Below, piece by piece: positions 25,593-53,791 of a stretch of 64,000 bases of DNA. The translations under genes and the position numbers were made by a program. Source of the stretch: an uncultured Gemmatimonadales bacterium. GTDB lineage: Bacteria; Gemmatimonadota; Gemmatimonadetes; Gemmatimonadales; GWC2-71-9. The notes beneath the pieces were generated by a model, which saw nothing but the letters and a program-made list of their open reading frames with translations, ran no database searches and was not told the origin of the DNA. Position 1 is the first letter of the stretch; each line of letters opens with the position of its first letter. Where the stretch lies: NCBI GenBank assembly GCA_963840215.1, contig CAWIYG010000006.1, positions 158,932 to 222,931 on the forward strand, given 5' to 3'.

Positions 25593-27803
25593 ATGCACGC
25601 CCTTCTGCTGCTCCTGTCCGTCACCGCGATCACCCAGGCTCCCGCGCCCCGCGCCCCGCACGCCGATATCGTCCGCTGGGAGCGTGCGGCGCGCGCGGTC
25701 ACGATCACCCGGGACGACTGGGGCATCGCGCACGTCCGCGGGAAGACCGACGCCGACGCCGTGTTCGGGATGATCTATGCCCAGGCCGAGGACGACTTCA
25801 ACCGGGTCGAGGCCAACTACCTCCTGTCGATCGGGCGAATGGCCGAGGCGGAGGGGGAGGGTGCGATCTGGCAGGACCTCCGGATGAAGCTGTTCATCGA
25901 TCCCGACAAAATGCGCGCCAGGTACGCCGCGAGCCCCGCTTGGCTGCGCCGCCTCATGGACGCCTGGGCCGACGGGCTCAACTACTACCTCCACACGCAT
26001 CCGGCCGTGAAGCCGCGAGTCATCCGGCGCTTCGAGCCGTGGATGGCGCTCACGTTCAGCGAGGGCAGCATCGGCGGGGACATCGAGAGCGTGGACCTCG
26101 ACCAGCTCCGGGCGTTCTACGGCGACAGCGCCGCCAACCGGGCCGCGCCGCCCGCTACGACGGGCGACGGCAACACGGAGCCCACGGGCTCGAACGGCTT
26201 CGCGATCGCGCCGTCCAACACCGCCAGCGGCCGGGCGCTCCTCCTCATCAACCCGCACACGTCGTTCTTCTTCCGCGCCGAGCTCCAGATGACGAGCGAG
26301 GAGGGGCTCAACGCGTATGGCGCCGCCACGTGGGGGCAGTTCTTCGTCTACCAGGGCTTCAACGACCGGGTCGGCTGGATGCACACATCCACGGGCGCGG
26401 ACGTGATCGATGAGTACGCCGAGACCGTCGTGCGGAGGGGCGGCCGGCTCTTCTACAAGTACGGCCGCGAGGAGCGGCCCATGGAGACCGGACGCATCAC
26501 CGTCCCCTACCGGGTGGCCGGCGGCATGGCACGCCGGACGTTCACCGTCTACCGGACACGCCATGGGCCCATCGTCCGCGCTGCCGACGGCAAGTGGATC
26601 AGCGTCCGGCTCATGGAGAAGCCCGTCGAGGCGTTGAGCCAGTCGTTTCTCCGCACCAAGGCGCGGACGCTGGCCGAGTATCGCAAGGTGATGGAGCTCC
26701 ACGCCAACTCGTCGAACAACGACGTCTACGCCGACGCCGACGGGCACATCGCCTACTGGCACCCGCAGTTCGTCCCGCGGCGGGACGACCGGTTCGACTG
26801 GACCCGGCCGGTGGACGGAAGCGATCCCGCCACCGAGTGGCTCGGTGTGCACGGGGTCGAGGAGAGCCCGCACGTGATCGACCCGCCGACCGGCTGGATC
26901 CAGAACACCAACAACTGGCCGTACTCGGCGGCGGGCCCGGACAGCCCGAAGGCGAAGGACTTTCCGCGGTACATGGACAACGCCGGCGAGAGCCCGCGCG
27001 GGCTCCACGCGATCCGGGTGCTGGAAGGGCGCAAGGACTTTACGCTCGAGCGGCTCCGGGACGCGGCGTTCGACAGCTATCTCACGGCGTTCGCGCAGCT
27101 CGTGCCGCCGCTGCTGGCGGCGTACGACTCGCTGCCGGGAGCGGTGCCGGGCGGGGACTCGCTGAACACGACGCTCGCCGAGCCGATCGCGGCGCTGCGC
27201 GGCTGGGACTATCGCTGGTCGGCGGGCTCGGTGCCGACGTCGGTCGCGGTGTACTGGGGGGAGGGGCTCATGGGTCTCGTGCGGGACCGGGCCTACCCGC
27301 CCGGTATGGCCGTGTACGACAGCATGGTGACGGGGACGACGGCAGCGCAGAAGCTGAGGGCGCTCGCCGCCGCGGTCGGACGTCTCACGCGCGACTTCGG
27401 AACCTGGCGGACGCCGTGGGGGGAGATCAACCGGTTTCAGCGCCTCACCGGCGACATCGTGCAGCAGTTCGACGATGCGGCGCCGAGCACGCCGGTTCCC
27501 TTCACGTCGGCGCGGTGGGGATCGCTGGCGGCCTTCGGCGCGCGGACGTATCCGGGGACGCGGCGCCAATACGGCACCTACGGCAACAGCTTCGTGGCGG
27601 TGGTGGAGTTCGGCAAGGACAGCGTGCGGGCGCGGGCGGTGACGGCGGGCGGCGAGAGCGGCGATCCGCGGTCGCCGCACTTCGGGGACCAGGCGGAGCG
27701 ATACGCGGAGGGGAGCCTGCGGGACGTGTACTTCTATCCCGGGCAGCTCGAGGGGCACACGGAGCGGGCTTACCGCCCGGGCGGCGGACCGCCGGGCAGG
27801 TAG
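25593..27803 (+). CDS. penicillin-acylase-family (S45, Ntn-hydrolase) acylase, secreted
   Basis: Intact 736-aa ORF. Signal peptide, then ITRDDWGIAHVRGKTDADAVFGMIYAQAEDDF, the processing site/nucleophile ...TGSNGFAIAPS, and LLINPHTSFF. Confidence 0.9.
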   Translation: MHALLLLLSVTAITQAPAPRAPHADIVRWERAARAVTITRDDWGIAHVRGKTDADAVFGMIYAQAEDDFNRVEANYLLSIGRMAEAEGEGAIWQDLRMKLFIDPDKMRARYAASPAWLRRLMDAWADGLNYYLHTHPAVKPRVIRRFEPWMALTFSEGSIGGDIESVDLDQLRAFYGDSAANRAAPPATTGDGNTEPTGSNGFAIAPSNTASGRALLLINPHTSFFFRAELQMTSEEGLNAYGAATWGQFFVYQGFNDRVGWMHTSTGADVIDEYAETVVRRGGRLFYKYGREERPMETGRITVPYRVAGGMARRTFTVYRTRHGPIVRAADGKWISVRLMEKPVEALSQSFLRTKARTLAEYRKVMELHANSSNNDVYADADGHIAYWHPQFVPRRDDRFDWTRPVDGSDPATEWLGVHGVEESPHVIDPPTGWIQNTNNWPYSAAGPDSPKAKDFPRYMDNAGESPRGLHAIRVLEGRKDFTLERLRDAAFDSYLTAFAQLVPPLLAAYDSLPGAVPGGDSLNTTLAEPIAALRGWDYRWSAGSVPTSVAVYWGEGLMGLVRDRAYPPGMAVYDSMVTGTTAAQKLRALAAAVGRLTRDFGTWRTPWGEINRFQRLTGDIVQQFDDAAPSTPVPFTSARWGSLAAFGARTYPGTRRQYGTYGNSFVAVVEFGKDSVRARAVTAGGESGDPRSPHFGDQAERYAEGSLRDVYFYPGQLEGHTERAYRPGGGPPGR

Positions 27804-27891
27804 GTCGCCCCAACCTTCCCATTGGCTCCCCCTCCCGCTTACGTACTTCCCTATCGGGGGCCGCCTCGATCCGCCGCTCCCAGGAGCTCGC

Positions 27892-28878
27892 ATGCCCGAG
27901 ACCAAATCCGCCAAGAAGAAAGCCGCCCCTCGCCGGAAGAAGCGCCCCGAAGGCGCCCCCCGCTCCCGCGGCATCGCCCCCGACGCGCTCGGCGAAGGAT
28001 CGCCTCCGGCTGCTGTCGTCCGCCTGGCCGAGGCGATCGAATCGGACGGCGGCACGGCGCTCGCCACGTATCGCGATCCCCTCGGCGGCCACTGGCAGAT
28101 CTTCGCTGGCCTCCCCATCGATCTGGTCGAGCCCACGCCCTACCAGCGCGACCTCAGCGACGCCCACGTCGCCAAGCTCTGTTCGGCGATGGACCGCCTT
28201 GGCCGCTACCTCGACCCGATGGTGGTCGTGCGCACCCCGGACGGCCACTACTGGACTCCCAACGGCAACCACCGGCTCGCCGCCATGCGCACGCTCGGCG
28301 CCCGCGCGGCCGTCGCCATCGTGGTGCCGGAGCCCGAGGTGGCCCACCGCATCCTGCTGCTCAACACCGAGAAGGCGCACAATCTCCGCGAGCGTGCGCT
28401 CGAGGTCGCGCGGTTGGCGCAAAACCTCGCCGAGCTCGACGACCGGCCCGAGCGCCAGTTCGAGACCGAGTTCGAGGAGGCCGCGCTCCTGACGCTCGGC
28501 CTCTGCTACCTGGAGAACGGACGGTTCGCGGGCGGCGCCTACCACCCGGTGCTCCGGCGGATCGACAAGTTCCTCGGCGTCGCGCTGCCGAAGGCGCTGG
28601 AGATCCGCCGGGCGCGCGCGGCGCGGGTGCTCGAGCTCGAGGAGGCGGTCAGCGCGGCCGTGAAGGCGCTCAAGGAGCGCGGGTTCGAGAGCCCGTACCT
28701 CCGGGCGTTCGTGGTCGCCCGCGTCAACCCGCTCCGCTTCCAGCGGGGGGCCAAGGCGGAATTCGACGAGACGCTCGACAAGATGCTCGCCGCCGCCCGC
28801 CGCTTCGATCCGGCCAGGATCAAGGCCGACCAGGTGGCCCGTGCCGCCGGTCCTCCGGAGGAGTCGGCCTCGGGCTGA
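27892..28878 (+). CDS. ParB/sulfiredoxin-fold (ParB N-terminal-like) domain protein
   Basis: ORF 27892..28878. Basic N-terminal tail, then PTPYQRDLSDAHVAKL...PMVVVRTPDGHYWTPNGNHRLAAMRTLG, which aligns to the ParB box with GNHR in place of GERR. Helical C-terminal half. Confidence 0.7.
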   Translation: MPETKSAKKKAAPRRKKRPEGAPRSRGIAPDALGEGSPPAAVVRLAEAIESDGGTALATYRDPLGGHWQIFAGLPIDLVEPTPYQRDLSDAHVAKLCSAMDRLGRYLDPMVVVRTPDGHYWTPNGNHRLAAMRTLGARAAVAIVVPEPEVAHRILLLNTEKAHNLRERALEVARLAQNLAELDDRPERQFETEFEEAALLTLGLCYLENGRFAGGAYHPVLRRIDKFLGVALPKALEIRRARAARVLELEEAVSAAVKALKERGFESPYLRAFVVARVNPLRFQRGAKAEFDETLDKMLAAARRFDPARIKADQVARAAGPPEESASG

Positions 28879-29037
28879 CGAGCCGGGGCGGCCGTCCTGT
28901 GGCAACCGCGCAGCATGCGCGGTTCTTGCAGCCTGCAAGCCATGGCATTGCAATAACATACAGGTAATCTTCAGGCACCGCCGCGGCCCGAAACCTGCAT
29001 GTTCGCGCCGGTATATGTCCCCCAAAATTTCTTCCCG

Positions 29038-31797
29038 ATGACACGCCTGCGCCGGTTCCGGCTCGCGGGAATCGCCGTGCTGCTTTCGGCGATGTCCGTG
29101 CGGTGCGGTGGCGAGAAGATCGGTCCGACCCCGGAGCCCGCGGCGATCGACATGGCCGGTGGCAACGGACAGGTCGCGCCGGTCAACGACCCGCTTCCCC
29201 AGCCGCTGGTCGTTGTCGTCACCGACGAATTCGGCGATCCCGTCGAAGGCGTGTCCGTGCAGTGGGACGCCCAGGGGACCGGCGACGTATCGCCGGCGAC
29301 GGTCGAGACCGACGTGGACGGCAGGGCCTCCGCCGCCCGGACGCTCGGCGGCACTCCCGGCCAGGAGACGACGACCGCCTCCGTCACCGGCCTCCAGGGC
29401 TCGCCCGTCACCTTCACCGCCACGGCAACCGACGGCCTCACGCCCACGCTCGCCATCACGACCCAGCCGTCGGCGGTGGCTCAGACCGGCATCGCGCTCG
29501 CCGTCCAGCCCGTGATCCAGCTCAAGGACGGCGCCGGCGCGGACGACGCGCAAAGCGGTGTCACCATCACCGCCGCGCTCACGGGCGACACCGGGACGCT
29601 CGAGGGCGACGTCACCCGCACGACCGGCGCGGGCGGCGCCGCCAGCTTCGACGACCTCGCCATCACCGGCGCCGACGGCGCCTACACGATCACCTTCACC
29701 GCCCCCGGCCACATCCAGGTCGTTTCGGCGCCGGTGACCCTGGGCACGCCGTCGCTCGCCATGAAGACGCAGCCCTCCGCCGACGCGGTGAGCGGCACCG
29801 CGCTCGACCAGCAGCCGACAGTGCAGCTGATCGACGGCATCGGTGCCGACGACGCCCGGAGCGGCGTGGTGGTCACGGCGGCCCTGGTGGGCTCCGCCGG
29901 GACGCTCGGCGGCGACCAGACGCGCTCGACCGACGCCTCCGGCGCCGCGACGTTCACCAACCTCGCCGTCACCGGCGAGCCCGGTGACTACACCATCCGG
30001 TTCACCGCGACGGGCTACTCGCAGGTCACCTCGTCTGCGATCGCGGTCACCGCCGCGCCCGCGACCATCGCGCTCACGAGCAACCCGCCCACGTCGGCCC
30101 TGACGGGCGAAGTGTGGGATCCGGACGTGCAGCCGGAGGTGCAGGTGAAGGACGGCACCGGCCAGCCCTCCGCCGGCGTCGAGGTCACGGCCAGCATCGC
30201 GTCGGGCGGGGGCACCCTGGACGGCACCGTCACTGCGACGACCACCGCCTCGGGCTTCGCGAAGTTCGGTGACCTCGGCATCACGGGCACCGGCAATCAG
30301 ACGCTCCGGTTCGCCATCGCGTCGGACACCGTGACGGCGGCGCCGGTCGATATCAACCCGCTCACGGCGGCGGCCACCGACGGCCAGTGGGGCCCGGTCG
30401 TGAACTGGGACATCGTGCCCCTGCACCTGAGCCTGCTGCCGAGCGGCTCGCTGCTCGGCTGGGGGAAATACGAACCCGGCGGCAGCGCCATGGGCATGCC
30501 GCGGCTGTGGGATCCGGCCAGCGGGTCGCCGTCGAACGCGACGATGATCGCGGTGGACACGATGCTGTTCTGCGCCGGGCATGCCTTCCTGCCCGATGGC
30601 CGCCTCATGATCTCCGGCGGCCACAAGGCCGACGGCGAAGGACTGGACATCACGACCATCTTCAACCCGGTCGGCGAGACGTTCATCCAGAGCCTGCCCA
30701 AGATGGCCTTCGGGCGCTGGTATCCCACCGTCACCGAGATGCCCGACGGCCGGATGCTCACCATGGCTGGCCAGGACTCCGCGGGCGTGGTGGTGACGAC
30801 GCCGGAGATCTGGGAGGGCAACCAGTGGGTCGAGCTGCCGGGGGCGGGCAGCCTCGAGATCCCGTACTATCCGCGCAACTTCATCGATCCGACGAACGGC
30901 CAGGTGTTCATGGCCGCGGAGCGCATCCGGTCGCGCTGGTTCGACCCGGACGGGTCGACGGCGACCGGACGCGGGCGCTGGATCAACGGTCCGTTCCACC
31001 TCTGGGCGAGGAATCGGGAGTACGGCTCGGCCGTCATGTACGACGCCGGACGCATCCTGGTCGTGGGCGGCGGCGGCGATATGGCATGGAGCACGCCCGA
31101 CGCCAAATCGAACGTGCCGACCGCGACGGCCGAAAAGATCAACCTCAACGCCGGCACGCCCGCGTGGTCGGACGCCGGCTCGATGGCCGCGCCTCGGCGG
31201 CATCTGAACGCCACGATCCTGCCCGACGGCCAGGTGCTCGTCACCGGCGGCACCAGCGGCGGCGGGTTCGTGAATCTCAGCCCGGCCAACGCCACCCGTG
31301 ACGCCGAGATCTGGAACCCGGCCACGAACCAGTGGACCACCCTTGCGGCCAGCAGCGTCGTCCGGACGTACCACTCCGTCTCGCTGCTCCTGCCCGACGG
31401 CACGGTCCTCCACGGCGCGAGCGGCAACGCGAACGTGGGCGCCGTGGCGATGGACGACGAGAACAGCCACGAGATCTTCTCGCCTCCGTACCTGTTCAAG
31501 GGCGCCCGCCCGACGATCACCAGCGCCCCGGCCAGCGTGAGCTACGGCCAGACCTTCAACGTCCCGACCCCGAACGCGGCGCAGGTGACCGACGTCCGCT
31601 GGATCCACATCGGCTCGGTCACCCACGCGTTCGACTTCGGCCAGCGGGCCAACACGCTGAACTTCACGATCACGGCCACCGGGGTGAGCGTCACGGCCCC
31701 GAACAACTCGAGGCTGGCGACGCCCGGGCACTACATGCTGTTCATCCTCAACCGAAATGGCGTGCCTTCCCGGGGCAGGATCATCCGGCTGCAGTAG
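29038..31797 (+). CDS. lipoprotein: Ig-like stalk (1 Big_1-like + 3 repeat modules) fused to a copper-radical-oxidase (galactose/glyoxal-oxidase-like) domain
   Basis: ORF 28999..31797. Start MTRLRRFRLAGIAVLLSAMSVRCGG (lipobox). Three approximately 100-aa repeats (QPVIQLKDGAGADDAQSGVTITAAL..., QPTVQLIDGIGADDARSGVVVTAAL..., PEVQVKDGTGQPSAGVEVTASI...). The C-terminal domain carries FCAGH, GRWYPT, RTYHS and SVTHAFDFGQR. Confidence 0.85.
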   Translation: MTRLRRFRLAGIAVLLSAMSVRCGGEKIGPTPEPAAIDMAGGNGQVAPVNDPLPQPLVVVVTDEFGDPVEGVSVQWDAQGTGDVSPATVETDVDGRASAARTLGGTPGQETTTASVTGLQGSPVTFTATATDGLTPTLAITTQPSAVAQTGIALAVQPVIQLKDGAGADDAQSGVTITAALTGDTGTLEGDVTRTTGAGGAASFDDLAITGADGAYTITFTAPGHIQVVSAPVTLGTPSLAMKTQPSADAVSGTALDQQPTVQLIDGIGADDARSGVVVTAALVGSAGTLGGDQTRSTDASGAATFTNLAVTGEPGDYTIRFTATGYSQVTSSAIAVTAAPATIALTSNPPTSALTGEVWDPDVQPEVQVKDGTGQPSAGVEVTASIASGGGTLDGTVTATTTASGFAKFGDLGITGTGNQTLRFAIASDTVTAAPVDINPLTAAATDGQWGPVVNWDIVPLHLSLLPSGSLLGWGKYEPGGSAMGMPRLWDPASGSPSNATMIAVDTMLFCAGHAFLPDGRLMISGGHKADGEGLDITTIFNPVGETFIQSLPKMAFGRWYPTVTEMPDGRMLTMAGQDSAGVVVTTPEIWEGNQWVELPGAGSLEIPYYPRNFIDPTNGQVFMAAERIRSRWFDPDGSTATGRGRWINGPFHLWARNREYGSAVMYDAGRILVVGGGGDMAWSTPDAKSNVPTATAEKINLNAGTPAWSDAGSMAAPRRHLNATILPDGQVLVTGGTSGGGFVNLSPANATRDAEIWNPATNQWTTLAASSVVRTYHSVSLLLPDGTVLHGASGNANVGAVAMDDENSHEIFSPPYLFKGARPTITSAPASVSYGQTFNVPTPNAAQVTDVRWIHIGSVTHAFDFGQRANTLNFTITATGVSVTAPNNSRLATPGHYMLFILNRNGVPSRGRIIRLQ

Positions 31798-32102
31798 CGG
31801 TTCCCTCAGCGCCTCTGGACCCGTCCTTCGCCGCCGTCCGTCCCACCCCTCCCAAAGTGATATGGATCGTAGTTTTCGTCCGGTCATTCGTTTACGATGC
31901 ATCCCAGCACCGATGGCAGCCTGCCGCTTGCCGGGCCGGCCCTGGGCGTCCGAGGCTGCGTTCCTAAGTATCATCGCTGCAATGATATAAGCTTGCCAGC
32001 ACGAACGTTTCACCGCGCGGAACGTGGTTCCGTGGTGAGGCGTCGTGCGGCCCCTATTCCCAAGGTGAGTGGTGGCCGGAGGTTCCGGCCCCCCGAGTGA
32101 TC

Positions 32103-34556
32103 ATGACGCGACTCAGAAAGCTGAATCTCGCGGCCCTTGCCGCCCTCCTGGCAACCGTCTCCCTCCAGTGTGGTGGGGAGGACATCGCCCAGCCGCCCGA
32201 CGCCACGGCCATCGAGATGGCCGGCGGCGACGGACAGACTGCCCCGGTCAGTGCCACCCTCCCGAATCCACTCGTGGTCGTGGTGACCGACGACGCCGGC
32301 GATCCGGTCTCGGGCGTCACGGTCCAGTGGAGCGCGCAGGGTGGGGGCGAAGTGACGCCCGAGAGCGTCGAGACCGGGTCCGACGGCACGGCCTCCGTGA
32401 CCCGGACGCTCGGCATCACCCCCGGCCAGCAGGCCACGGTGGCCACGGTATCGGGCCTCCGGGGCTCGCCCGTGACCTTCACCGCGACCGCCACCGACGG
32501 CTCGACCCCGACGCTGGCCATCAAGACGGCGCCATCGCTCGCCGCCCAGAACGGCGTTCCGCTGGCCGTGCAGCCGGTGATCCAGCTCAAGGACGGCGAC
32601 GGCGCCGACCTGGCGGAGGCCGGCGTGGCGGTCACGGCCGAGGTCAACAGCGGGACCGGGACGCTCGCCGGCACGCTCATCCGCAGCACTGACAACAGCG
32701 GCGCCGCCACGTTTACGGATCTGGCCCTGAGCGGCAGCGCCGGCGAGTTCACGCTCAAGTTCACCGCGCCGGGCTACGTCCAGGTCACCTCCGCCACCAT
32801 CACCCTGGGCGGCACCGCCGCCGGCATCGTCATCACGGTGAATCCGCCGACGGCCGCCCTCACCGGCGAGGTGTTCGATCCCGCGGCGCAGCCGGTGGTC
32901 CAGGTGAACGACGGAAGCGGTCAGCCCGTGTCGGGGGTCGACGTCACGGCCAGCGTGGCTTCCGGCGGCGGGACGCTCCAGGGAGCCACCACGGCCACGA
33001 CCGACGCCTCGGGTCTCGCCAGGTTCGGCGACCTCGGCATCGAGGGCACCGGTGCGCAGACGCTGGCCTTCGCGGCGGGCGCGAGCAGCGTCACCTCGTC
33101 GCCGGTGAACCTGTCGGCGCTCTCCACCGAGGCCACGCAGGGCAAGTGGGGCCCGGTCGTGAACTGGGACATCGTGCCCCTGCACCTGAGCCTGCTGCCC
33201 ACCGGGAAGCTGCTGGGGTGGGGCAAGTTCGAGCCGGGCGGCACGATGATGGGTATGCCCCGGCTCTGGGATCCCGCGAGCGGCCCGCCGACCAGCGCGC
33301 GCGAGATCGCGGTGGACACCATGCTGTTCTGCGCCGGGCACGCGTTCCTGCCCGACGGCCGCCTCCTGATCTCCGGCGGACACAAGGAGGACAACGAGGG
33401 CATCGACGTCACCAATATCTTCGACCCGGCCAGCGAGACCTTCGTGGCGGGCCTGCCCAAGATGGCCTTCGGGCGCTGGTATCCCACCGTCACCGAGATG
33501 CCCGACGGGCGCGTGGTCACCATGGCCGGCCGGGATTCGGCCGGCAGGGTGGTGACGACTCCGGAGATCTGGGAGAACAACCAGTGGGTCCAGCTGCCAG
33601 GCGCCGGGTCGCTGGATATCCCCTACTACCCGCGCAACTTCATCGACCCGACGAACGGGCAGATCTTCATGGCCGCGGAGCGGATCCAGTCTCGCTGGTT
33701 CGACCCCGACGGGTCGGCGGCGGGCGGGCGCGGGAAGTGGACCAGCGGGCCGAGCCATATCTGGAAGTTCAACCGCGATTACGGCACCGCCGCGATGTAC
33801 GAGCCGGGGAAGATCCTGGTCGTGGGCGGCGGCGGCGACCCCGGCTGGGGCTCTCCCGACGCCAAGTCGCCGACGCCGACGGCCACGGCCGAGAAGATCG
33901 ATCTGACCGCCGGCTCGCCCAGCTGGCAGAATGCCGGTTCGATCTCGGCCCCGCGCCGGCACCTCAACGCCACGATCCTGCCGGATGGCCAGGTGCTCGT
34001 CACCGGCGGCACCCGTGGGGCCGGCTTCGTCAACATCGACCCGTCGCTGGCCACGAAGGCCGCGGAGGAGTGGAACCCGGCGACCAACGAGTGGACCACG
34101 CTGGCCGCGAACAGCAAGATGCGGGTCTATCACTCGGTGTCGATGCTGCTCCCCGACGGCACGGTGCTGCACGGCGCCAGCGGCAACGCGATGGCGATCA
34201 GCGTGCCCGTGCCCGACGAGCCCAACCACGAGATCTTCTCGCCGCCGTACCTGTTCAAGGGCGCCCGCCCGACGATCGGGAGTGCGCCGCCGAGCGCGGG
34301 CTATGGCCAGACGTTCACCGTCGCCACCCCGAACGCCGCGCAGGTGACCGAGGTGCGCTGGATTCACCTCGGCACGGTGACCCATGCGTTCGACTTCGGC
34401 CAGCGCGCCAACAAGCTGGCCTTCACTCGCACCACCACCGGCGTGAGCGTGACGGCACCAAGCGGCCCCAACCTCGCACCGCCGGGGCACTACATGCTCT
34501 TCATCCTCAACCGGAACGGCGTGCCGTCGACGGGCAAGATCATCCGGCTCCAGTAG
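32103..34556 (+). CDS. paralogous lipoprotein: Ig-like stalk (1 + 2 modules) fused to a copper-radical-oxidase domain
   Basis: ORF 32097..34556. Start MTRLRKLNLAALAALLATVSLQCGG. Same architecture as the upstream gene minus one stalk module. Motifs FCAGH, GRWYPT, RVYHS and TVTHAFDFGQR are conserved. 55- and 57-nt blocks are identical to gene 1. Confidence 0.85.
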   Translation: MTRLRKLNLAALAALLATVSLQCGGEDIAQPPDATAIEMAGGDGQTAPVSATLPNPLVVVVTDDAGDPVSGVTVQWSAQGGGEVTPESVETGSDGTASVTRTLGITPGQQATVATVSGLRGSPVTFTATATDGSTPTLAIKTAPSLAAQNGVPLAVQPVIQLKDGDGADLAEAGVAVTAEVNSGTGTLAGTLIRSTDNSGAATFTDLALSGSAGEFTLKFTAPGYVQVTSATITLGGTAAGIVITVNPPTAALTGEVFDPAAQPVVQVNDGSGQPVSGVDVTASVASGGGTLQGATTATTDASGLARFGDLGIEGTGAQTLAFAAGASSVTSSPVNLSALSTEATQGKWGPVVNWDIVPLHLSLLPTGKLLGWGKFEPGGTMMGMPRLWDPASGPPTSAREIAVDTMLFCAGHAFLPDGRLLISGGHKEDNEGIDVTNIFDPASETFVAGLPKMAFGRWYPTVTEMPDGRVVTMAGRDSAGRVVTTPEIWENNQWVQLPGAGSLDIPYYPRNFIDPTNGQIFMAAERIQSRWFDPDGSAAGGRGKWTSGPSHIWKFNRDYGTAAMYEPGKILVVGGGGDPGWGSPDAKSPTPTATAEKIDLTAGSPSWQNAGSISAPRRHLNATILPDGQVLVTGGTRGAGFVNIDPSLATKAAEEWNPATNEWTTLAANSKMRVYHSVSMLLPDGTVLHGASGNAMAISVPVPDEPNHEIFSPPYLFKGARPTIGSAPPSAGYGQTFTVATPNAAQVTEVRWIHLGTVTHAFDFGQRANKLAFTRTTTGVSVTAPSGPNLAPPGHYMLFILNRNGVPSTGKIIRLQ

Positions 34557-34614
34557 CCATCTGGCGGGCATACTCGTCACCTGGCTGGCGTACGCGTCAC
34601 CCTGAGCGAAGCGA

Positions 34615-34642
34615 AGGGGCCATGATTCGAATCATGGCCCCT
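34615..34642. repeat. 28-bp perfect palindrome AGGGGCCATGATTC/GAATCATGGCCCCT preceded by GTCACCCTGAGCGAAGCGAAGGGG (REP-like element)
   Basis: Read directly at 34615-34642, about 60 nt after the stop at 34556. An A-run follows (34651-34656). The GAGCGAAGCGAAGGGG leader resembles the left arm of the other GGGGCATG hairpins. Confidence 0.7.
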
Positions 34643-34790
34643 CTTCGTTGAAAAAATGTGGTCCCCGTCGCAGTCCGCACTCGCCCGAAGCGCTAGCCTG
34701 CATCGGGCTGGAGCCATCGCGGCTCCCGCCATCATCCATATTCCCGGCGCAGGCCGCTGCTCGCCGCGCCGTCACTCATAGGAGGCAGCC

Positions 34791-35015
34791 ATGTTCGGAT
34801 TGGGCAAGCGGAGCACCCGCAGCGGCTTAGGCCGTGGCGGGGTGTTCTCGGGCGGCGGCCTGCGCCGCGCGGCGATCGCGGGGCTGGGCATGCTGGCGTA
34901 CCGCTGGTGGCGGAATCGGCACGCGGGGAGCACACCGGCCACCGGCAACTGGCAGGGTGCCGGCGAGCCAGCGGCAGGGAACACGCAGCGGACCGGCAGC
35001 GGAGAGGTCTGGTAG
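34791..35015 (+). CDS. small Gly/Arg-rich hypothetical protein (74 aa)
   Basis: ORF 34791..35015 with AGGAGG 7 nt upstream of the ATG, bracketed by hairpins at 34615-34642 and 35035-35068. One hydrophobic stretch (AAIAGLGMLAYRWW). Coding status is uncertain. Confidence 0.4.
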   Translation: MFGLGKRSTRSGLGRGGVFSGGGLRRAAIAGLGMLAYRWWRNRHAGSTPATGNWQGAGEPAAGNTQRTGSGEVW

Positions 35016-35034
35016 GCCACTTCGTCCTGCGATG

Positions 35035-35071
35035 GGAAGGGGGCATGCGCCAAGGCATGCCCCTTTCCTTT
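35035..35071. terminator. hairpin GGAAGGGGGCATGC / GCATGCCCCTTTCC with flanking T-runs; likely bidirectional terminator
   Basis: 14-bp stem (one G-U) at 35035-35048 and 35055-35068, followed by TTT. Sits between convergent stops at 35015 (plus) and 35075 (minus). Confidence 0.6.
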
Positions 35072-35074
35072 GGC

Positions 35075-36553
35075 TCAGTGCGACTCGGCCGGCGCGCTCC
35101 CGATCGCTGCCCCGAGGCTCTCCGGCCCGACCAGCTGCTCCGGTCGCAGATCGAGCACCAGCTCGCCCTGTCCCGACGCCACGGCGCGCACCAGCAGCGC
35201 GGCGGGGGCGGCCCGGACGCTCAGCACCCGCCCGGACCGGACGTCCATCCGCAGGTGCACGCCCTCGGCCAGGTCGCGATTGAGGTTCCGCTCGAGCAGG
35301 TCGCGCCCGTCGGCCAGTGTCGGGCCGAGCTTGATCCGCACCTTGGTGCGCAGGAACTCTTCCACCGGCCCGGTCGCGAGCCAGGCGAGCGTCCCGGTCA
35401 TCAGGTCGCGCGTCCCCACGTCGTACTCCAGGTCCGGCATGTAGAGTTCGGCGGTGGCGGTGTCGTAGGCGGGGTGCCCCACCGCGTAGAGGACACCGCG
35501 CACGGAGCCGTGCACGGCGAGGCCGACCGCCACCCGGCCGTCGCCCACGCCGATCAGGTGGAGGCTATCCAGCACGAGCCGCTGGCGGGCCACCCGGATG
35601 CGGGTGCCGCGCAGCTCCTTGGTCAGGATGCTGCTGGCCACGTCGTACGGCAGGCGCCCCTCGGTCAGGAGATGCATCACCGGGGGCCGCGAGGTCGAGT
35701 CCTGCGGCGCCGGCATCGGCGTCGGCGCCACCTCGGGCCGCGGGCCGCCGACTACGCGAGGGTTGGCCGAGAGACCGACAGTGGTGACGAGCGTGTCGCC
35801 CTGCATCCGGAGCATCCCCAGCCGGACGGTGGCGGGATTGATCACGAGCCACAGGCTGTCGGTGAGCTTGAGCGGCGAGCTCAGCACGGTCCACAGGCGG
35901 CGAGACTCGTCGGGCAGATCGAACGCGGCGATCCGCGCGTCGAGCGTGGTGAGCCGCTGCTGCAGCGCCGCCTGGGCCGCGCCCATCACCTTGTCGGTGA
36001 TGTCCACCTTGAGAAACGTGACCTTGCAGCGATCGCGCTCCGGGTTCGAGAGCGGTGCCATGATCGCTCGGGTGCGCGGCCGGAGGGTCCAGCCGCTGGT
36101 GAGCTGCACGGTCGTCGCCACGGTGAGGCGGGCGCGTGGCGGGGTCTCGTCGTCGTCGCAGGAGGCGCTGATCTCGGGCAGCACCGGCGGGTTGTACCAT
36201 GCCCGGACGCGGTAGCGCATCTCGGCCTGGAGCACGGCCGTGCGGCCGTCCACCTGGAGCCGGAACGGCGTCCGGTGCACCGCGTAGGCGTAGTGCATGC
36301 GCGACTTGCCGGGTACCGCCTGGCGGTCCTCGAGATCGCCGAAGCGAACGGGGACCTCGGACTCGAGCCAGCGCATCGCCGGCGCGAGGTCGTATCGCAC
36401 GGGCACGTCGAGGTACGAGGTGGGCACCGGAGGCAGGCTGTCGACCCACACGCCGCTCGCCGTCGGAACGGGCGGAGCAACCTTCTCCCCGCGGCAGGCG
36501 CCGGTGGCCAGGAGCAGGCCGAGGGCGCATCGCTGCAGCATCGATGTGGCCAT
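35075..36553 (-). CDS. DUF4403-like lipoprotein
   Basis: ORF 35075..36772. Start MATSMLQRCALGLLLATGACRG (lipobox) at 36553. 492 aa of non-repetitive sequence. Family assignment is from memory only. Confidence 0.7.
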   Translation of the reverse strand: MATSMLQRCALGLLLATGACRGEKVAPPVPTASGVWVDSLPPVPTSYLDVPVRYDLAPAMRWLESEVPVRFGDLEDRQAVPGKSRMHYAYAVHRTPFRLQVDGRTAVLQAEMRYRVRAWYNPPVLPEISASCDDDETPPRARLTVATTVQLTSGWTLRPRTRAIMAPLSNPERDRCKVTFLKVDITDKVMGAAQAALQQRLTTLDARIAAFDLPDESRRLWTVLSSPLKLTDSLWLVINPATVRLGMLRMQGDTLVTTVGLSANPRVVGGPRPEVAPTPMPAPQDSTSRPPVMHLLTEGRLPYDVASSILTKELRGTRIRVARQRLVLDSLHLIGVGDGRVAVGLAVHGSVRGVLYAVGHPAYDTATAELYMPDLEYDVGTRDLMTGTLAWLATGPVEEFLRTKVRIKLGPTLADGRDLLERNLNRDLAEGVHLRMDVRSGRVLSVRAAPAALLVRAVASGQGELVLDLRPEQLVGPESLGAAIGSAPAESH

Positions 36554-36812
36554 GCGCGCTCCGTGGGTGGGCGGCCAACTGCCATGGTGGTAAGGGACTA
36601 GATGCAACATGCCCGCGGAGGACCGCTTGCGGCCATGACCGGCGTCACGCGGGGAGCGTGGCTCGGCTCCGGGTGGAGGGGACCGCACGCTGCTGCGCCC
36701 TGCGAGGCCCGGGCGGGCATTGGGCGAGTGCGGGTGGCCGACACTATCTTGACCCATAGAGAGCTCGAGCAACGCCCAGTGCCAAAAAGCGAACTATCCG
36801 AGGAGCACGCGC

Positions 36813-37772
36813 ATGATCCGACCACATTGGACACTCGCGGCACTGACCCTCGCCGCTGCCTGCGGCCGCGGCGACCGCCCCGCCCCCGGCGCCGACTCGG
36901 CCGCCGTCGCGACCGCCGATACCGTCGCCGCGGCCAGCGGCCCCAGTCGCGTCGAAGGGTTCGAGGGACCCGAGTCCGTCAGGTACGATCCGGATCTCGA
37001 CGTCTGGTACGTCTCCAACGTCAACGGCACGCCGGTCGCCAAGGACGGCAACGGCTACCTCTCGCGCCTGAAGAGTGATGGCACGGTCGATTCGCTCAAG
37101 TGGATCGTGAGCGGCGCGAACGGCGTGACACTCGACGCGCCCAAGGGGCTCGCCCTGCAGGGCGACACGCTCTGGGTGGCCGACATCACCAACGTGCGCG
37201 GGTTCAACCGCCGCACCGGCGCGCCGGTGGCCAGCATCGCGGTCAAGGGTTCGAAGTTCCTGAACGACATCGCCGTCGGTCCCGACGCCCTGTACCTGAC
37301 CGACAGCGGTTTCGAGGGCGGCGCCAAGGGGCTCGAGCACACCGGTCCCGACCGGATCTACCGCATCGGGCCCGATCGCCGCGTGAGTGTCGCGCTCCAG
37401 TCGGACAGCCTCACCGGGCCGAACGGCATCGCGTGGGATGCCGCCGGGAATCGGTTCATCGTCGTGCCCTTCGCCGGCAACGTCGTCCGCGCCTGGTCGC
37501 CCGGCAGCAAGGCTACGGTCGCGCTCGGGACCGCCAAGGGGCAGCTCGACGGCGTCGAGCTGCTCGGCGGCAACCGCCTGCTCCTCACCAGCTGGACCGA
37601 CTCCAGCCTGTTCGTGTTCGAGAACGGGACCACCACGCCCGTGGCCAACGGGCTTCCATCGCCCGCCGACATCGGCGTCGACCTCAAGCGCCAGCGCGTC
37701 GCCGTGCCGCTCCTGCTCGAGAACCGGGTCGAATTCCGCGCCCTGCCGGCCGCCGGCACGGCTCAGCCCTGA
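36813..37772 (+). CDS. six-bladed beta-propeller lipoprotein (SMP-30/gluconolactonase/LRE-like)
   Basis: ORF 36813..37772. Start MIRPHWTLAALTLAAACG (lipobox). Repeated blade text (PESVRYDPDLDVWYVSN, PKGLALQGDTLWVAD, LNDIAVGPDALYLTD, PNGIAWDAAGNRFIVV, LDGVELLGGNRLLLTS, PADIGVDLKRQRVAVP). Confidence 0.7.
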   Translation: MIRPHWTLAALTLAAACGRGDRPAPGADSAAVATADTVAAASGPSRVEGFEGPESVRYDPDLDVWYVSNVNGTPVAKDGNGYLSRLKSDGTVDSLKWIVSGANGVTLDAPKGLALQGDTLWVADITNVRGFNRRTGAPVASIAVKGSKFLNDIAVGPDALYLTDSGFEGGAKGLEHTGPDRIYRIGPDRRVSVALQSDSLTGPNGIAWDAAGNRFIVVPFAGNVVRAWSPGSKATVALGTAKGQLDGVELLGGNRLLLTSWTDSSLFVFENGTTTPVANGLPSPADIGVDLKRQRVAVPLLLENRVEFRALPAAGTAQP

Positions 37773-46181: not shown

Positions 46182-46512
46182 CGTCCGGCCCGGGCGAGGT
46201 TCGGCGACGACGTGGGTGGATGAGGCGACGCGGCCGGCCTTCGAGCGGCTCGGCTCGGAGCCGTTTCGCCCCTTCGAGGCCGCCCGGCGGAAGGGTCTCG
46301 GCAGGCGCCGGGGACCGCAGGCGTAGGAGGACGCGAACATGTCGATGCATCCGAGCAGAATCTGCACGGTTTTCCAGCCACGTTTCGACATTTCCACATC
46401 CACTGCATTACTGTCAAGCTAAATCTGCACATTCTGCTTGGAATCCATTACACTTCCCTCAGGAGTGTCGGGTCCAGACGCGTTATTGGTTTTTCCCGTT
46501 GCAGAGCGGCTC

Positions 46513-48201
46513 ATGTCCCCATCGCCACGCAAGATTGTCTTTCACGTGCCATCCCTGATGCCCGACGAGGCGTCGCGCCGTCGCGCCGAGCCCACCGCGC
46601 GGCACGCCCCGACGCCGCCGGCCACCCCGCGCGAGAGCGCCAGTATCCCGGTCGAGGGCGGCATCCCGGTCGAGGGTGGCGATGTGCGGAAGCTCGCGAC
46701 CCTGCTCGAGGTCAGCCAGGCCCTGGCCGGCACGCTCAACCTCCAGACCGGCCTCTACGGCGTCCTGGAAGTGCTCGAGCGCCGGTGTGGCGCCCGCCGC
46801 GGCGCCGTCACCCTGATCGAGGAGGCGAGCGGGCTCTTGGTGGTGGAGGCGGCGCTCGGGTATCCCCGGGCCGCAGGCCGGGTCCGCTACCGCGTGGGCG
46901 AGGGGATCACCGGCGGCGTGGCGCAGCGGGGGACGCCCGCGGTGGTGCCGCATCTGATCGAGGACCCGGAGTTCCTCCACCGCGCCGTGCCCCGCGGCGA
47001 GCGCCGGGGTGAGGAGGACATGAGCTTTCTCTGCGTTCCCATCCTCATGGAGGGATCGAGCGCGGGCACGCTCGCCGTCGAGATGCCGTTCGTACCCGAG
47101 GCGGACAGCGAGCGGATGATCAAGGTCCTCCGTATCACCGCGGCGCTCATCTCCCAGGCAGTGAGGATCCACCGGCTGGTCGAGGGCGATCGGCAGCGGC
47201 TGGTCGAGGAGAACACCCAGCTCCGGGAGGAGCTGCGCGAGCGCTACGAGTTCACCAACATCGTCGGCAACAGCGGCACGATGCGCCGGGTCTACGAGCA
47301 GGTGGCGCAGGTGGTCGGCACCAGCGCCACGGTCATGGTGCGGGGCGAGAGCGGCACCGGCAAGGAGCTCATCGCCCACGCGCTTCACCACCACTCGCCG
47401 CGGGCCGGGAAGCCCTTCATCCGGGTGAACTGCGCCGCGCTTCCCGAAACCCTGGTCGAGACCGAGCTCTTCGGCCACGAGCGCGGCGCATTTACCGGGG
47501 CGCAGGCCCGCCGCAAGGGCAAGTTCGAGCAGGCGGACGGCGGCACGCTGTTCCTGGACGAGATCGGCGAGCTGAGCCAGTCCACCCAGGCCAAGCTGCT
47601 CCGGGCGCTGCAGGAGCGCGAGTTCGAGCGGGTCGGCGGCAACGAGACGATCCGGGTGGACGTCCGGATGATCGCGGCCACCAACAAGGACCTCGAGAAA
47701 GCGCTGGCGGAGGGGACGTTCCGGGAGGATCTGTACTACCGGCTCAACGTCTTCACGATCCACGTGCCGCCGCTGCGCGAGCGGAAGTCGGACGTGCTGC
47801 TCCTGGCCGACCATTTCGTCGAGAAGTACGCCCGGGTGCATCAGCGCACCATCAAGCGGATCTCGACCCCGGCCATCGACATGCTCATGGCCTACCACTG
47901 GCCGGGCAACGTCCGCGAGCTGGAGAACACGCTCGAGCGCGCCGTGCTGGTCGCCGACGGCGACGTGATCCACGGCCATCACCTTTCGCCGACGCTCCAG
48001 ACGGCGGAGGCCTCGGGCACCGTGGTCTCGCGCTCGCTGGGCGAGGCCGTGGGCGTGTTCGAGAGCAACCTGATCCAGGACGCGCTCAAGAGCACGCGCG
48101 GCAACCGCGCCAAAGCCGCGCGCCTGCTCGGCACCACCGAGCGGATCCTGAGCTACAAGGTGCGGCGCTACGGGATCGATCCCCGGCGGTTCCGCGGCTG
48201 A
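46513..48201 (+). CDS. sigma-54-dependent transcriptional activator, GAF-AAA+-Fis HTH (NifA/FhlA-like architecture, no receiver domain)
   Basis: ORF 46438..48201 (TTG 46438 or ATG 46513). GAF region, Walker A GESGTGKE, ERGAFTGA (the GAFTGA sigma-54 contact loop), LFLDEIGE, and C-terminal GNRAKAARLLGTTERILSYKVRRYGI. Confidence 0.9.
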   Translation: MSPSPRKIVFHVPSLMPDEASRRRAEPTARHAPTPPATPRESASIPVEGGIPVEGGDVRKLATLLEVSQALAGTLNLQTGLYGVLEVLERRCGARRGAVTLIEEASGLLVVEAALGYPRAAGRVRYRVGEGITGGVAQRGTPAVVPHLIEDPEFLHRAVPRGERRGEEDMSFLCVPILMEGSSAGTLAVEMPFVPEADSERMIKVLRITAALISQAVRIHRLVEGDRQRLVEENTQLREELRERYEFTNIVGNSGTMRRVYEQVAQVVGTSATVMVRGESGTGKELIAHALHHHSPRAGKPFIRVNCAALPETLVETELFGHERGAFTGAQARRKGKFEQADGGTLFLDEIGELSQSTQAKLLRALQEREFERVGGNETIRVDVRMIAATNKDLEKALAEGTFREDLYYRLNVFTIHVPPLRERKSDVLLLADHFVEKYARVHQRTIKRISTPAIDMLMAYHWPGNVRELENTLERAVLVADGDVIHGHHLSPTLQTAEASGTVVSRSLGEAVGVFESNLIQDALKSTRGNRAKAARLLGTTERILSYKVRRYGIDPRRFRG

Positions 48202-50679: not shown

Positions 50680-51684
50680 TCAGCCTTCCTTCCGCACCTC
50701 GGCCGCCGTCTTGTCCTCGCGCAGTCCCAGGTATCGCGGATGCCGCAGCAGTCCCGCCGGCGTCCACTCCCCGAACCCGATCTCGACCACCAGCTTCGGC
50801 GTCACCCACTGCACCTCGCCCGCCGGCGCCGGCCCCGGCGCGAACGGCGACGTGCGGCGGTGCAGCGGCGCCAGCTTCCGGCCCAGCAGCTCGAGCGTAT
50901 CGCGATCGTATCCCGTGCCGACCTTGCCCGCGTACCGCAGCACGCCCTGCTCGTAGTACCCCACGAGCAGCGCGCCCAGGTTTTCGCGCGACCCCTTCGG
51001 CGCTGTGTACCCGCCGACCACGAATTCCTGCTGATGCACGCACTTGATCTTGAGCCAGTCGGCCGAGCGCGCGCTCACGTAGCGGCTCTCCGCCCGCTTG
51101 GCGATGATCCCCTCGGCGCCCTTGGCGCACGCCCGCCGCAGCATCGCGGCCGAGCCGGTGGTACGGAACGGCGTAAACCGGATCGGATCGTCGTACCACA
51201 CGACGTCCCGGAGCACCGCCTTCCGATCCACCAGCGGCAGGTTGGTCAGGTCGATCCCCTCGTAGAACAGGCAGTCGAACAGGTAGAGCTCGACCGCCAC
51301 GTCGCTCGACCGGGCCTTGAGCTGGTCGCGCAGCTGCATCCGGCGCTGCAGCCGGGAGAAGCTGCTCTGGCCGGTGTCGGGGTCCACGGCCACCACCTCG
51401 CCGTCGAGCACGGCGTCGCCACGCACGGCGAAGGAGAGGGCATCGACCAGCTCGGGATAGGCGTTGTCGAGCGGCTTCCGGTTGCGGGAGAAGAGCCGCA
51501 CGTTCCCGCCGTTGGTGTAGACCAGCACGCGCACGCCGTCGAGCTTGGGCTCGTACAGCCACTGGCCGCCGTGGGGCGTCGCCTCGACCAGGGTGGCGAG
51601 CATGGGCGGGATCCAGCCGGGCTGCGCCCGGTAGCGGAGCCGCGCGTTGGCGGACTTGGAGAGCGACTCCAGGCGGCGGCTCAT
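50680..51684 (-). CDS. ligD: ATP-dependent DNA ligase, stand-alone LigD ligase domain (NHEJ)
   Basis: ORF 50680..51963. Start MSRRLESLSK at 51684 overlaps the stop of the upstream gene (ATGA). Adenylation motif YEPKLDGVR, plus EGIIAKRAES, WLKIK and an OB-fold tail. Confidence 0.9.
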   Translation of the reverse strand: MSRRLESLSKSANARLRYRAQPGWIPPMLATLVEATPHGGQWLYEPKLDGVRVLVYTNGGNVRLFSRNRKPLDNAYPELVDALSFAVRGDAVLDGEVVAVDPDTGQSSFSRLQRRMQLRDQLKARSSDVAVELYLFDCLFYEGIDLTNLPLVDRKAVLRDVVWYDDPIRFTPFRTTGSAAMLRRACAKGAEGIIAKRAESRYVSARSADWLKIKCVHQQEFVVGGYTAPKGSRENLGALLVGYYEQGVLRYAGKVGTGYDRDTLELLGRKLAPLHRRTSPFAPGPAPAGEVQWVTPKLVVEIGFGEWTPAGLLRHPRYLGLREDKTAAEVRKEG

Positions 51685-52775: not shown

Positions 52776-52777
52776 AG

Positions 52778-52866: not shown

Positions 52867-52895
52867 TCGGATGACGGCTGGTCCCGAAGCACGGC

Positions 52896-53735: not shown

Positions 53736-53791
53736 GCGCCCTCCTCCCTTAGAGGCCCGGCCCGACCGGCCGTATGAGGACTCCGCGCAGG

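Follow-up and report, generated by a model that had tools for sequence, protein, structure and literature searches.

Two adjacent genes of an uncultured, soil-type Gemmatimonadales bacterium (contig CAWIYG010000006.1) raise the question of what a pair of oxidases carried on rows of immunoglobulin-like (Ig) modules might do outside the cytoplasm of their host. The window, i.e. the whole stretch of 64,000 nucleotides (nt) analyzed here, contains them on the forward strand as gene 1 (CRO-1, 919 amino acids (aa) from MTRLR) and gene 2 (CRO-2, 817 aa), separated by a spacer of 305 nt. The window itself belongs to a contig of 1.08 Mb assembled from a metagenome (ENA ERZ25039516, contig_5804). A first-pass annotation had given 920 and 818 aa; its open reading frames (ORF) on this strand were borne out, the stop codon having been counted in both lengths. 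The proportion of G+C at third codon positions (GC3) is 0.93 for the two genes, which is typical of real genes in a window of 71% G+C. Their nearest relatives are all found in metagenome-assembled genomes of Gemmatimonadales, and the host is a diderm since the window encodes Omp85 and an outer-membrane beta-barrel protein. Our reading, to which we give a probability of roughly 0.6, is that both genes would encode exported copper radical oxidases, tethered by their N-terminus on Ig rods and acting on a glycan or another polymer, that they would be driven by sigma-54, and that they stem from an old duplication followed by gene conversion.

The catalytic domain and its active site

Pfam detects in both proteins Big_1, Ig-like modules of the CarboxypepD_reg/MG4 type, Glyoxal_oxid_N, Kelch and GO-like_E_set (DUF1929), the last with 88 and 91 bits for a cut-off of 25. 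The catalytic region measures 478 aa and not about 530 aa as first proposed. A phmmer search of the PDB reached 4.6e-52 for the galactose oxidase of Pseudoarthrobacter siccitolerans (9g8h, also solved as 9g43; 26% identity with 9g8h), 1e-45 for a Colletotrichum oxidase, 1.4e-44 for GlxA of Streptomyces and 4e-39 for the Fusarium galactose oxidase 1gof. When the structural model of gene 2 was compared with the PDB by Foldseek, matches 1 to 27 were all solved copper radical oxidases (AA5), the lowest root mean square deviation being 3.4 A, to GlxA; generic Kelch proteins came about 20 orders of magnitude behind. Profile searches and structure prediction, which the first-pass annotation had suggested as checks, lead by Pfam, phmmer and Foldseek to the same assignment of the C-terminal domain, namely to the superfamily of galactose oxidase, glyoxal oxidase and GlxA (AA5-like in CAZy). 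Database records already name these proteins "galactose oxidase-like" or "DUF1929 domain-containing".

The motifs FCAGH, GRWYPT, (T/V)YHS and VTHAFDFGQR, from which a complete set of copper radical oxidase residues had been proposed, are all present in the two proteins and invariant in a family alignment of 55 sequences. In gene 2, C410 aligns with Cys228 of galactose oxidase and Y460 with Tyr272 (the mapping was made on the engineered variant 8tx5, which is numbered +1), while Y676/H677 correspond to Tyr495/His496 and H761 to His581, as read from ungapped alignment ranges (1gof 487-595 versus query 15-122). These five residues and W459 are invariant in the same alignment, and the mapping onto galactose oxidase and GlxA together with the fold upholds the completeness of the set. 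The roles of the five residues are summarized in a review (PMC11611005). The motif around the cysteine of the presumed cross-link reads FCAGH here versus FCPG in galactose oxidase and FCTGH in GlxA. The second shell is GlxA-like, with a Trp directly before the Tyr to be cross-linked (FGRWYPT versus EARWYPT in GlxA), and the position of Trp290 of galactose oxidase is occupied by Asp (GRDSAG).

A Kelch propeller can also be imagined as a mere binding domain, in which case the two proteins would be adhesins. The Kelch motifs found by Pfam and a stalk like those of invasin, intimin and FdeC would fit such a role; we nevertheless hold it to be extremely improbable, as 55 homologues all keep the five copper and cofactor residues and the E-set from which the last His comes, and as the best structural matches are all oxidases, far ahead of any generic Kelch protein.

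The resemblance to GlxA brings in another possibility, namely that the two proteins are GlxA orthologues depositing a surface glycan with a cellulose-synthase-like enzyme, as in Streptomyces. The five first-shell residues, the Trp-Tyr second shell, the high rank of GlxA in the structural comparison, where its deviation is the lowest, and an envelope tether (putative here) are common features. On the other side, the NCBIfam equivalog model of GlxA (NF052501) gives only 223.6 and 226.8 bits versus a cut-off of 800, and the insert of about 120 aa which forms domain 2 of GlxA (chain positions 110-228) has no counterpart, the aligned query stretches simply abutting. For a transmembrane anchor like that of GlxA, the hydrophobic stretch of 13 residues is too short. 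Among the window ORFs scanned we found no cslA, cslZ or lpmP-like gene, no GT2 or other glycosyltransferase, no GH6 and no lytic polysaccharide monooxygenase (LPMO), which agrees with the earlier remark that no cslA-type glycan synthase is adjacent; nor is GT2 a recurrent neighbour across the 79 loci of the family in GTDB species genomes. In Streptomyces glxA is co-transcribed with cslA (PMC9040799). We consider orthology with GlxA to be largely refuted and retain it as a very improbable explanation.

Stalk modules and the N-terminal cysteine

Self-comparison delimits the order signal peptide, Big_1, A, A', C and catalytic region in gene 1, and signal peptide, Big_1, A, C and catalytic region in gene 2. 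The module counts given by the first-pass annotation (Big_1 plus three and Big_1 plus two) are confirmed, as is its statement that the two proteins differ by exactly one module: the difference is 102 aa, corresponding to 29743-30060 or equally well to 29437-29742. Identities amount to 59% between A and A', 59% between A and its gene 2 counterpart, and 65% between the two C modules. With just 59% identity between A and A', the additional module of gene 1 is no recent insertion. The AlphaFold2 model of gene 2 has a predicted local distance difference test score (pLDDT) of 87 and is all-beta over residues 36-340, the propeller following; a model of the stalk alone reaches a pLDDT of 94. The best structural matches of this stalk model are invasin, FdeC, InvD, intimin D0-D1, the S-layer protein SbsC, extender repeats of RTX adhesins and macroglobulin domains, all of which are rod-forming Ig arrays. 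The stalk was also considered as an array of carbohydrate-binding modules (CBM), a possibility rejected since no CBM was among its structural matches.

The distance from the signal cysteine to the catalytic domain is quantised in 113 close homologues, with classes at about 220, 320 and 425 residues, and the length of orthologues over five related genomes ranges from 825 to 932 aa for CRO-1 and from 714 to 819 aa for CRO-2. Module number thus varies between paralogues and among orthologues, and together with the three length classes this makes the "extendable stalk" of the first-pass annotation a fair description. Throughout the Gemmatimonadales clade the order is fixed: signal cysteine, Big_1, zero to three modules, oxidase. 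The family is much expanded in Gemmatimonadales, with 381 matches in species genomes of this order, and the wider bacterial superfamily 4275 clusters at 50% identity (E<=1e-30). Thousands of bacterial relatives pair the catalytic domain with arrays of Big, PKD, fn3 or CBM domains; the architecture is not unique in that sense. One family member, 68% identical to gene 2, lies on a contig of 3.6 kb (L017, JBIOWF010000068.1) binned as Microtetraspora sp. (Actinomycetota), for which faulty binning is a likelier explanation than transfer across phyla.

Both signal peptides comprise a positively charged n-region, an h-region of 13 residues and a cysteine at position 23 (as in MTRLRKLN / LAALAALLATVSL / QC). 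Cys23 is invariant across the oxidase family, and each protein contains two cysteines in total. As the other one is the active-site cysteine, Cys23 has no intramolecular disulphide partner. Cys23 had been described as a lipobox cysteine: the residue is real, the lipobox is non-canonical. In 59 family members the residue preceding it is R in 21, T in 19, Q in 11 and A, S or G in 7, so that R/Q/T account for 51 of 59. Putative lipoproteins from these loci other than the oxidases have A there in 39 cases, G in 9 and S in 3, i.e. A/G/S in 51 of 61; three apparent lipoproteins with T at this position proved on inspection to be oxidase genes. The adjoining lipoprotein-like genes of the window (DUF4403 and SGL-like) have canonical GAC and AAC boxes. 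R/Q/T prevailing in the oxidases and A/G/S in other putative lipoproteins of the same DNA, the deviation is specific to the family and not to the genome. Export by the twin-arginine translocation (Tat) pathway was rejected, no conserved twin-arginine motif being found among the homologues.

The same counts lend some weight to soluble periplasmic or secreted oxidases, a doubtful but serious alternative to tethered ones. Signal peptidase I would then cut two residues before the cysteine, after (A/S/T)-x-(S/T), and the N-terminal cysteine would serve otherwise, for instance in an intermolecular disulphide of a homodimer or of a heterodimer of the paralogues. Small residues at -3 and -5 relative to the cysteine (ATVS-LQC, SAMS-VRC) and exactly one spare cysteine per protein agree with this, as does the prevalence of R/Q/T where other lipoproteins of these loci have A/G/S. 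Yet the charged n-region, the 13-residue h-region and a cysteine at about position 23 have the layout of a lipoprotein signal, the A/S/G found before the same cysteine in 7 of 59 members would be expected if it were lipidated, and a rod-like stalk is best explained with one end fixed. The tether postulated in our reading is plausible, with lipidation and surface exposure as putative features, and either a relaxed lipobox or a cut by signal peptidase I two residues upstream could account for the deviation.

A bolder combination, which we put forward as rather improbable, would turn the deviation itself into the signal. Arg, Gln or Thr before the cysteine would be a family-specific sorting or anchoring signal beyond the canonical rules, which could reflect a relaxed specificity of Lgt and LspA or a different modification of the N-terminal cysteine in Gemmatimonadota, and sigma-54-controlled oxidases on graded stalks would turn the cell's own surface or matrix glycans into aldehydes at set distances from the membrane. 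If true, the envelope of a diderm would be chemically remodelled (cross-linked) during development or under stress, the multi-copy family supplying a set of differing reach lengths.

Duplication, transcription and neighbourhood

The close similarity of the two genes had been ascribed to recent duplication or gene conversion. Across five genomes that have the pair in this arrangement, the catalytic parts share 77-85% identity among CRO-1 proteins and 81-90% among CRO-2 proteins, versus 72-78% for the paralogues within a genome. CRO-1 and CRO-2 thus form separate orthologue groups, each copy having its own orthologues in at least five related genomes, and the duplication is older than these species; a recent duplication was rejected on this ground.

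Gene conversion, by contrast with recent duplication, stood up to the analysis. The 55-nt block shared by the two genes is identical as announced and correctly placed in gene 1, its gene 2 copy being displaced by one position (33145-33199); the second block exists too and is 58 nt long instead of 57. Between the two genes 35% synonymous differences are observed at identical amino acids, and on this background two stretches without a single difference, 17 and 18 codons long, stand out. In an amino-acid-stratified permutation the longest run has P=0.003, and a second run of such length occurred in 0 of 5000 shuffles. Codon bias was rejected as the source of the blocks by this permutation and by derived states common only within one genome. 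In tract 1, gene 2 carries the CRO-1-type CTGAGC (Leu-Ser) where four of four CRO-2 orthologues have Met/Leu-His, and a GTC codon common to both window genes is found in no orthologue. In tract 2, GAGATGCCC (Glu-Met-Pro) exists only in the two window genes, eight of eight orthologues having Leu-Pro or Leu-Thr. L007 shows a converted stretch of its own, with paralogues 96-97% identical over about 50 codons. On these sequence comparisons the identical blocks are short gene-conversion tracts, and the history of the pair is that of an old tandem duplication whose copies still exchange short tracts.

Upstream of gene 1 lies a -24/-12 element of the sigma-54 type, which is the sole exact match to GGCNCGN4YTGCWT within the window. 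The consensus upstream of the family genes is C-GGCCCG-GAA-SS-TGCAT, with GG and GC spaced as in sigma-54 promoters (TGGCAC-N5-TTGCW). In 42-46 of 82 family genes, versus 0.6-2.5 expected, such an element precedes the Cys23 codon by 112-160 nt. For the pattern GGC-N8-TGC[AT] in a zone 60-185 nt upstream of this codon the numbers are 46 of 82 versus 2.5, and for the minimal pattern GG-N9-TGC 70 of 82 versus 18; the enrichment of the sigma-54-type motif is 18- to 70-fold. It was seen among others in L001, L005-L009, L018, L031, L033, L041, L044, L045, L054, L056, L066, L067, L072 and L084. A reading of the motif as the promoter of an extracytoplasmic function (ECF) sigma factor (GGAAC-N16-17-CGTC) was rejected, no enrichment being observed. 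The orthologues of gene 2 in L001, L006, L007 and L008 retain GGCGCGGAACCTGCTT or near variants at the place where the window has lost both GG and GC. A gene for a sigma-54 enhancer-binding protein (GAF, AAA+ and HTH_8 domains) is encoded 12 kb downstream of the pair, which suggests that the organism uses sigma-54. The palindrome before gene 1 may be the site of a regulator of this kind, and the inverted repeat in the spacer, which precedes the gene 2 element by about 120-140 nt, is a possible activator-binding site.

The GC-rich hairpin past gene 2 probably closes the transcription unit. Nothing of similar stability lies in the spacer between the genes (z = -1.2), Rfam gave no match over 27000-37000, and scans for sigma-70 promoters and terminators gave nothing above chance. 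With a degenerate gene 2 element, no strong hairpin between the genes and a very stable one past gene 2, the simplest reading is that both genes are transcribed together from the gene 1 promoter. Transcription would probably be driven by the sigma-54 promoter before gene 1, gene 2 being read through or weakly expressed alone. After the hairpin a small Gly/Arg-rich ORF of 74 aa is found at 34791-35015, with a gene call also in L004 and L006.

The promoter-like element bears on the start of gene 1, which is ambiguous (28999-29040): a further ATG in the same frame, at 28999, would lengthen the protein by 13 aa (932 aa in total) and overlaps the -12 element. If the -24/-12 element is a real promoter, this ATG lies upstream of the transcription start and the start at 29038, retained in the first-pass annotation, is right. 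In the orthologues of gene 1 in L005 (~6938), L006 (~5306) and L007 (~7432) the start is a conserved ACATG about 20 nt past the GC of the -12 box, which would make their mRNAs nearly leaderless; the window counterpart is out of frame through a 1-nt difference.

As the first-pass annotation had stated, the upstream neighbours of the pair are a penicillin amidase and a ParB_N-like protein, the latter with a weak Pfam match. Matches of the ParB_N-like protein to ParB and to the serine kinase SerK are marginal. Its gene lies directly upstream of CRO-1 in the nearest genomes (L005 5816-6802, L006 4183-5169, L007 6312-7298), and the order ParB_N-like, CRO-1, CRO-2, DUF4403 (opposite strand), SGL-like lipoprotein, dienelactone hydrolase is shared by the window with L005 and L006 and kept in part in L001, L007, L008 and L056, the DNA farther upstream being different each time. 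Co-occurrence of the pair with this neighbour, proposed as a check, proved to be conserved synteny only: the gene is absent from about 70 of the 79 family loci, and in L076 a ParB-like gene (2711-3683), SGL and dienelactone hydrolase are adjacent with no oxidase between them. The ParB-like gene is on both grounds part of the syntenic backbone, and we rejected it as a functional partner, an idea left unsupported by its presence in the closest clade only and by the L076 arrangement.

A Pfam census of 130 flanking genes at the family loci gave 20 biopterin-dependent hydroxylases, 13 short-chain dehydrogenases, 11 sulfotransferases, 10 radical-SAM/DUF512 proteins, 7 PKD and 7 RecQ. The hydroxylase, acting on aromatic amino acids by its annotation (about 309 aa), is encoded just upstream of many oxidases of the 715-aa class, at about 20 loci of other Gemmatimonadales (e.g. 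L043 8674-9603, L045 8555-9484, L054 8561-9490, L058 8567-9496, L059 8623-9552). Tandem or clustered copies of the oxidase occur in at least 13 of the 79 loci, with three or more loci in each of several genomes. In a more distant genome (L003, identical to L010, 10001-17021) three oxidase paralogues are packed in 7 kb, one stalked, one stalkless (573 aa) and one apparently split (241 + 338 aa); they adjoin GT2, GT4, a sulfotransferase and two PKD-repeat genes. In L001 (3509-8568) transposase/integrase genes (rve, Transposase_20) replace the penicillin amidase and the ParB-like gene upstream of the pair, with an ABC-toxin-like giant gene beyond them. The window also contains, on the reverse strand at 50680-53951, a cluster for non-homologous end joining (Ku, LigD primase-polymerase, ATP-dependent ligase) unrelated to the oxidases. 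The coordinates of all features of the locus are listed in Table 1.

Table 1. Features of the oxidase locus, in window coordinates
Feature	Positions	Strand	Basis or remark
Penicillin amidase	25593-27803		Pfam
ParB_N-like protein (weak match)	27892-28878	+	Pfam; 328 aa, cytoplasmic, basic tail, GNHR motif
Palindrome TTGCAG-C-CTGCAA upstream of gene 1	28926-28938	+	Conserved in L005; TTGCAC-C-GTGCAA in L006, palindrome kept
Sigma-54-type -24/-12 promoter-like element GGCCCGAAACCTGCAT before gene 1	28985-29000	+	cGGCCCG-AAAC-CTGCAT
Gene 1 (CRO-1), stalked copper radical oxidase	29038-31797	+	ORF list, Pfam, PDB phmmer
Gene 1 signal peptide ending at Cys23 (29104-29106)	29038-29106	+	Lipobox SVR-C, non-canonical
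Gene 1 Big_1 (invasin/intimin-type) Ig domain	29137-29436	+	Pfam; 69% identical to gene 2 Big_1
Gene 1 three Ig-like stalk modules, ~102 aa each	29437-30360	+	Self-comparison; direct-repeat families D1, D4, D6
Gene 1 module A	29437-29742	+	Self-comparison
Gene 1 module A'	29743-30060	+	Self-comparison
Gene 1 module C	30061-30360	+	Self-comparison
Gene 1 catalytic region, seven-bladed Kelch propeller and C-terminal E-set	30361-31794	+	Glyoxal_oxid_N, Kelch, GO-like_E_set; PDB matches
Gene-conversion tract 1, 55 nt	30386-30440	+	Identical to 33145-33199; permutation, orthologue comparison
Gene 1 active-site C512	30571-30573	+	
Gene-conversion tract 2, 58 nt	30692-30749	+	Identical to 33451-33508, spans Trp-Tyr motif; permutation, orthologue comparison
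Gene 1 active-site W561-Y562	30718-30723	+	
Gene 1 active-site Y778-H779	31369-31374	+	
Gene 1 active-site H863	31624-31626	+	
Inverted repeat GATCGTAG-N18-TTTACGATGCAT in the spacer, after gene 1 stop	31865-31902	+	Conserved in L001, L005, L006, L007
Degenerate sigma-54-type element before gene 2	32013-32029	+	Reads CCGCGCGGAACGTGGTT; GG and GC both lost
Gene 2 (CRO-2), stalked copper radical oxidase	32103-34556	+	ORF list, Pfam, AlphaFold2 model
Gene 2 signal peptide ending at Cys23 (32169-32171)	32103-32171	+	SLQ-C before/at Cys
Gene 2 Big_1	32202-32501	+	Pfam
Gene 2 module A	32502-32813	+	
Gene 2 module C	32814-33119	+	
Gene 2 catalytic region	33120-34553	+	
Gene 2 active-site C410	33330-33332	+	
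Gene 2 active-site W459-Y460	33477-33482	+	
Gene 2 active-site Y676-H677	34128-34133	+	
Gene 2 active-site H761	34383-34385	+	
GC-rich terminator-like hairpin past gene 2	34605-34650	+	dG -30.5 kcal/mol, z = -5.25
GAF / sigma-54 AAA+ (Sigma54_activat) / HTH_8 enhancer-binding protein	46438-48201	+	12 kb downstream of the pair

Proposed function and comparison with known systems

The elements described above can be assembled into the following scheme. Each protein would be exported by its Sec-type signal peptide, at the end of which stands the invariant cysteine. Big_1 and two or three modules of about 102 aa form a rigid rod with the propeller and its E-set cap at the far end. There, one copper ion would be bound through the Tyr-Cys pair (Y460-C410 in gene 2), Tyr676, His677 and His761. 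By homology with characterized enzymes, copper would be loaded outside the cytoplasm, where the site would process itself to the Tyr-Cys radical cofactor, and a primary alcohol or hydrated aldehyde would be oxidised, the two electrons passing to O2 with release of H2O2. The stalk would fix the distance of this chemistry from the membrane, and paralogues with unequal stalks would differ in the depth at which they act or in their substrate.

By analogy, the substrate is most likely a glycan or some other polymer, located at the cell envelope or outside it. We favour a carbohydrate that is polymeric or bound to the surface because relatives at 45-50% identity carry CBM6, CBM35 and CBM4_9 modules, because the enzyme would be held at a fixed distance from its anchor, and because of the role of GlxA. 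To our knowledge GlxA is the sole bacterial member of the superfamily with a known role, and it acts in glycan deposition. It is possible, if less probable, that the two proteins are mainly generators of H2O2 from small diffusible alcohols or aldehydes (glycolaldehyde, glyoxal, methylglyoxal, aryl alcohols), serving antagonism, detoxification or oxidative attack on plant polymers in the manner of fungal glyoxal oxidase and not the modification of glycans. The Asp in place of the stacking Trp290 would suit such substrates, neither protein has a carbohydrate-binding module according to Pfam and to the structural matches of the stalk, and the window ORFs scanned include no glycan synthase. Moreover GlxA and SCO2837p, which have the same Trp-Tyr motif, act in vitro mainly on glycolaldehyde (PMC11611005). 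But no peroxidase or other H2O2-using enzyme recurs among the 130 flanking genes, a stalk of defined length is hard to reconcile with a freely diffusing substrate, and the CBM-bearing relatives again speak for carbohydrate.

Several observations weigh against the reading of the pair as tethered, sigma-54-driven oxidases of glycans or polymers. The Glyoxal_oxid_N scores of 37.7 and 42.8 bits are barely above the cut-off of 37.5. The canonical lipobox [LVI][ASTVI][GAS]-C is found in neither gene (SVR-C, SLQ-C), which makes the tether uncertain; Arg or Gln before the cysteine violates the canonical lipobox and is expected to fit signal peptidase II poorly. In this genome gene 2 is preceded by a promoter-like element in degenerate form, and rpoN does not lie within the window. 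The census of 130 flanking genes revealed no recurrent glycan synthase, peroxidase or copper chaperone, and the commonest neighbours of family genes look like the product of plain synteny. Finally, a literature search turned up no publication on Gemmatimonadota enzymes of this kind or on copper radical oxidases with an Ig stalk, in line with the first-pass annotation, which knew of no described function.

Copper radical oxidases are valued biocatalysts, and what we know of them comes almost entirely from fungi and from a single Streptomyces enzyme. The catalytic domain studied here is a clear member of this known superfamily. New are the defined architecture of the clade, the quantised stalk, a cysteine signal peculiar to the family, a putative promoter of the sigma-54 type, and evidence that gene conversion still goes on between the products of an old duplication. 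The locus represents a large, multi-copy bacterial clade, annotated yet unstudied, whose distinctive traits would be a GlxA-like second shell without the capping domain, a modular rod that sets distance, and a common sigma-54-type promoter. This clade is a source of new enzymes for screening. For Gemmatimonadota, a soil phylum about which little is understood, it poses a tractable question, namely that of the extracellular substrate which these bacteria oxidise and of the signal under which they do so. Its deviant cysteine signal is a concrete test case for rules of lipoprotein prediction beyond the model phyla.

Among known systems, GlxA (SCO2837 / SLI_3188) is bacterial and envelope-tethered, as the window proteins putatively are, and has the same five first-shell residues. 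It also has a Trp before the cross-linked Tyr (W288-Y289, corresponding to W459-Y460 of gene 2), and lacks both a stacking residue of the Trp290 type and a CBM32 (PMC11611005). It differs by an extra domain inserted in the propeller, by its anchor, a transmembrane helix, and by having no Ig stalk, whereas the signal peptide of the window proteins ends in a cysteine and is followed by three to four Ig domains, with neither the insert nor cslA. The galactose oxidases of P. siccitolerans (9g43/9g8h), which is the best match both by sequence and by Foldseek, and of Fusarium graminearum (1gof, AA5_2) have in common with them the propeller, the E-set and the Cys228/Tyr272/Tyr495/His496/His581 set. 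They contain GRGYQS and the stacking Trp290 where the window proteins have GRWYPT and Asp, and the Fusarium enzyme begins with a CBM32 in place of the Big_1/Ig stalk.

The stalks of invasin, intimin and FdeC are likewise tandem Ig rods of the Big_1 type holding a C-terminal functional domain off the membrane. In those proteins the rod starts from an N-terminal outer-membrane beta-barrel and ends in a lectin-like domain, whereas here there is no barrel and the rod runs from a cysteine signal to a distal oxidase. Parallels in overall design are provided by other multidomain bacterial relatives, uncharacterised and of metagenomic origin, with catalytic domains 42-55% identical to those of the window and arrays of Big_1, Invasin_D3, Big_2, Big_7, PKD, fn3, CBM6/35, CBM4_9 and LamG. 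Their arrays are N- or C-terminal and often include true carbohydrate-binding modules, in contrast to the Gemmatimonadales clade, which has a fixed order of domains and a promoter motif of its own.

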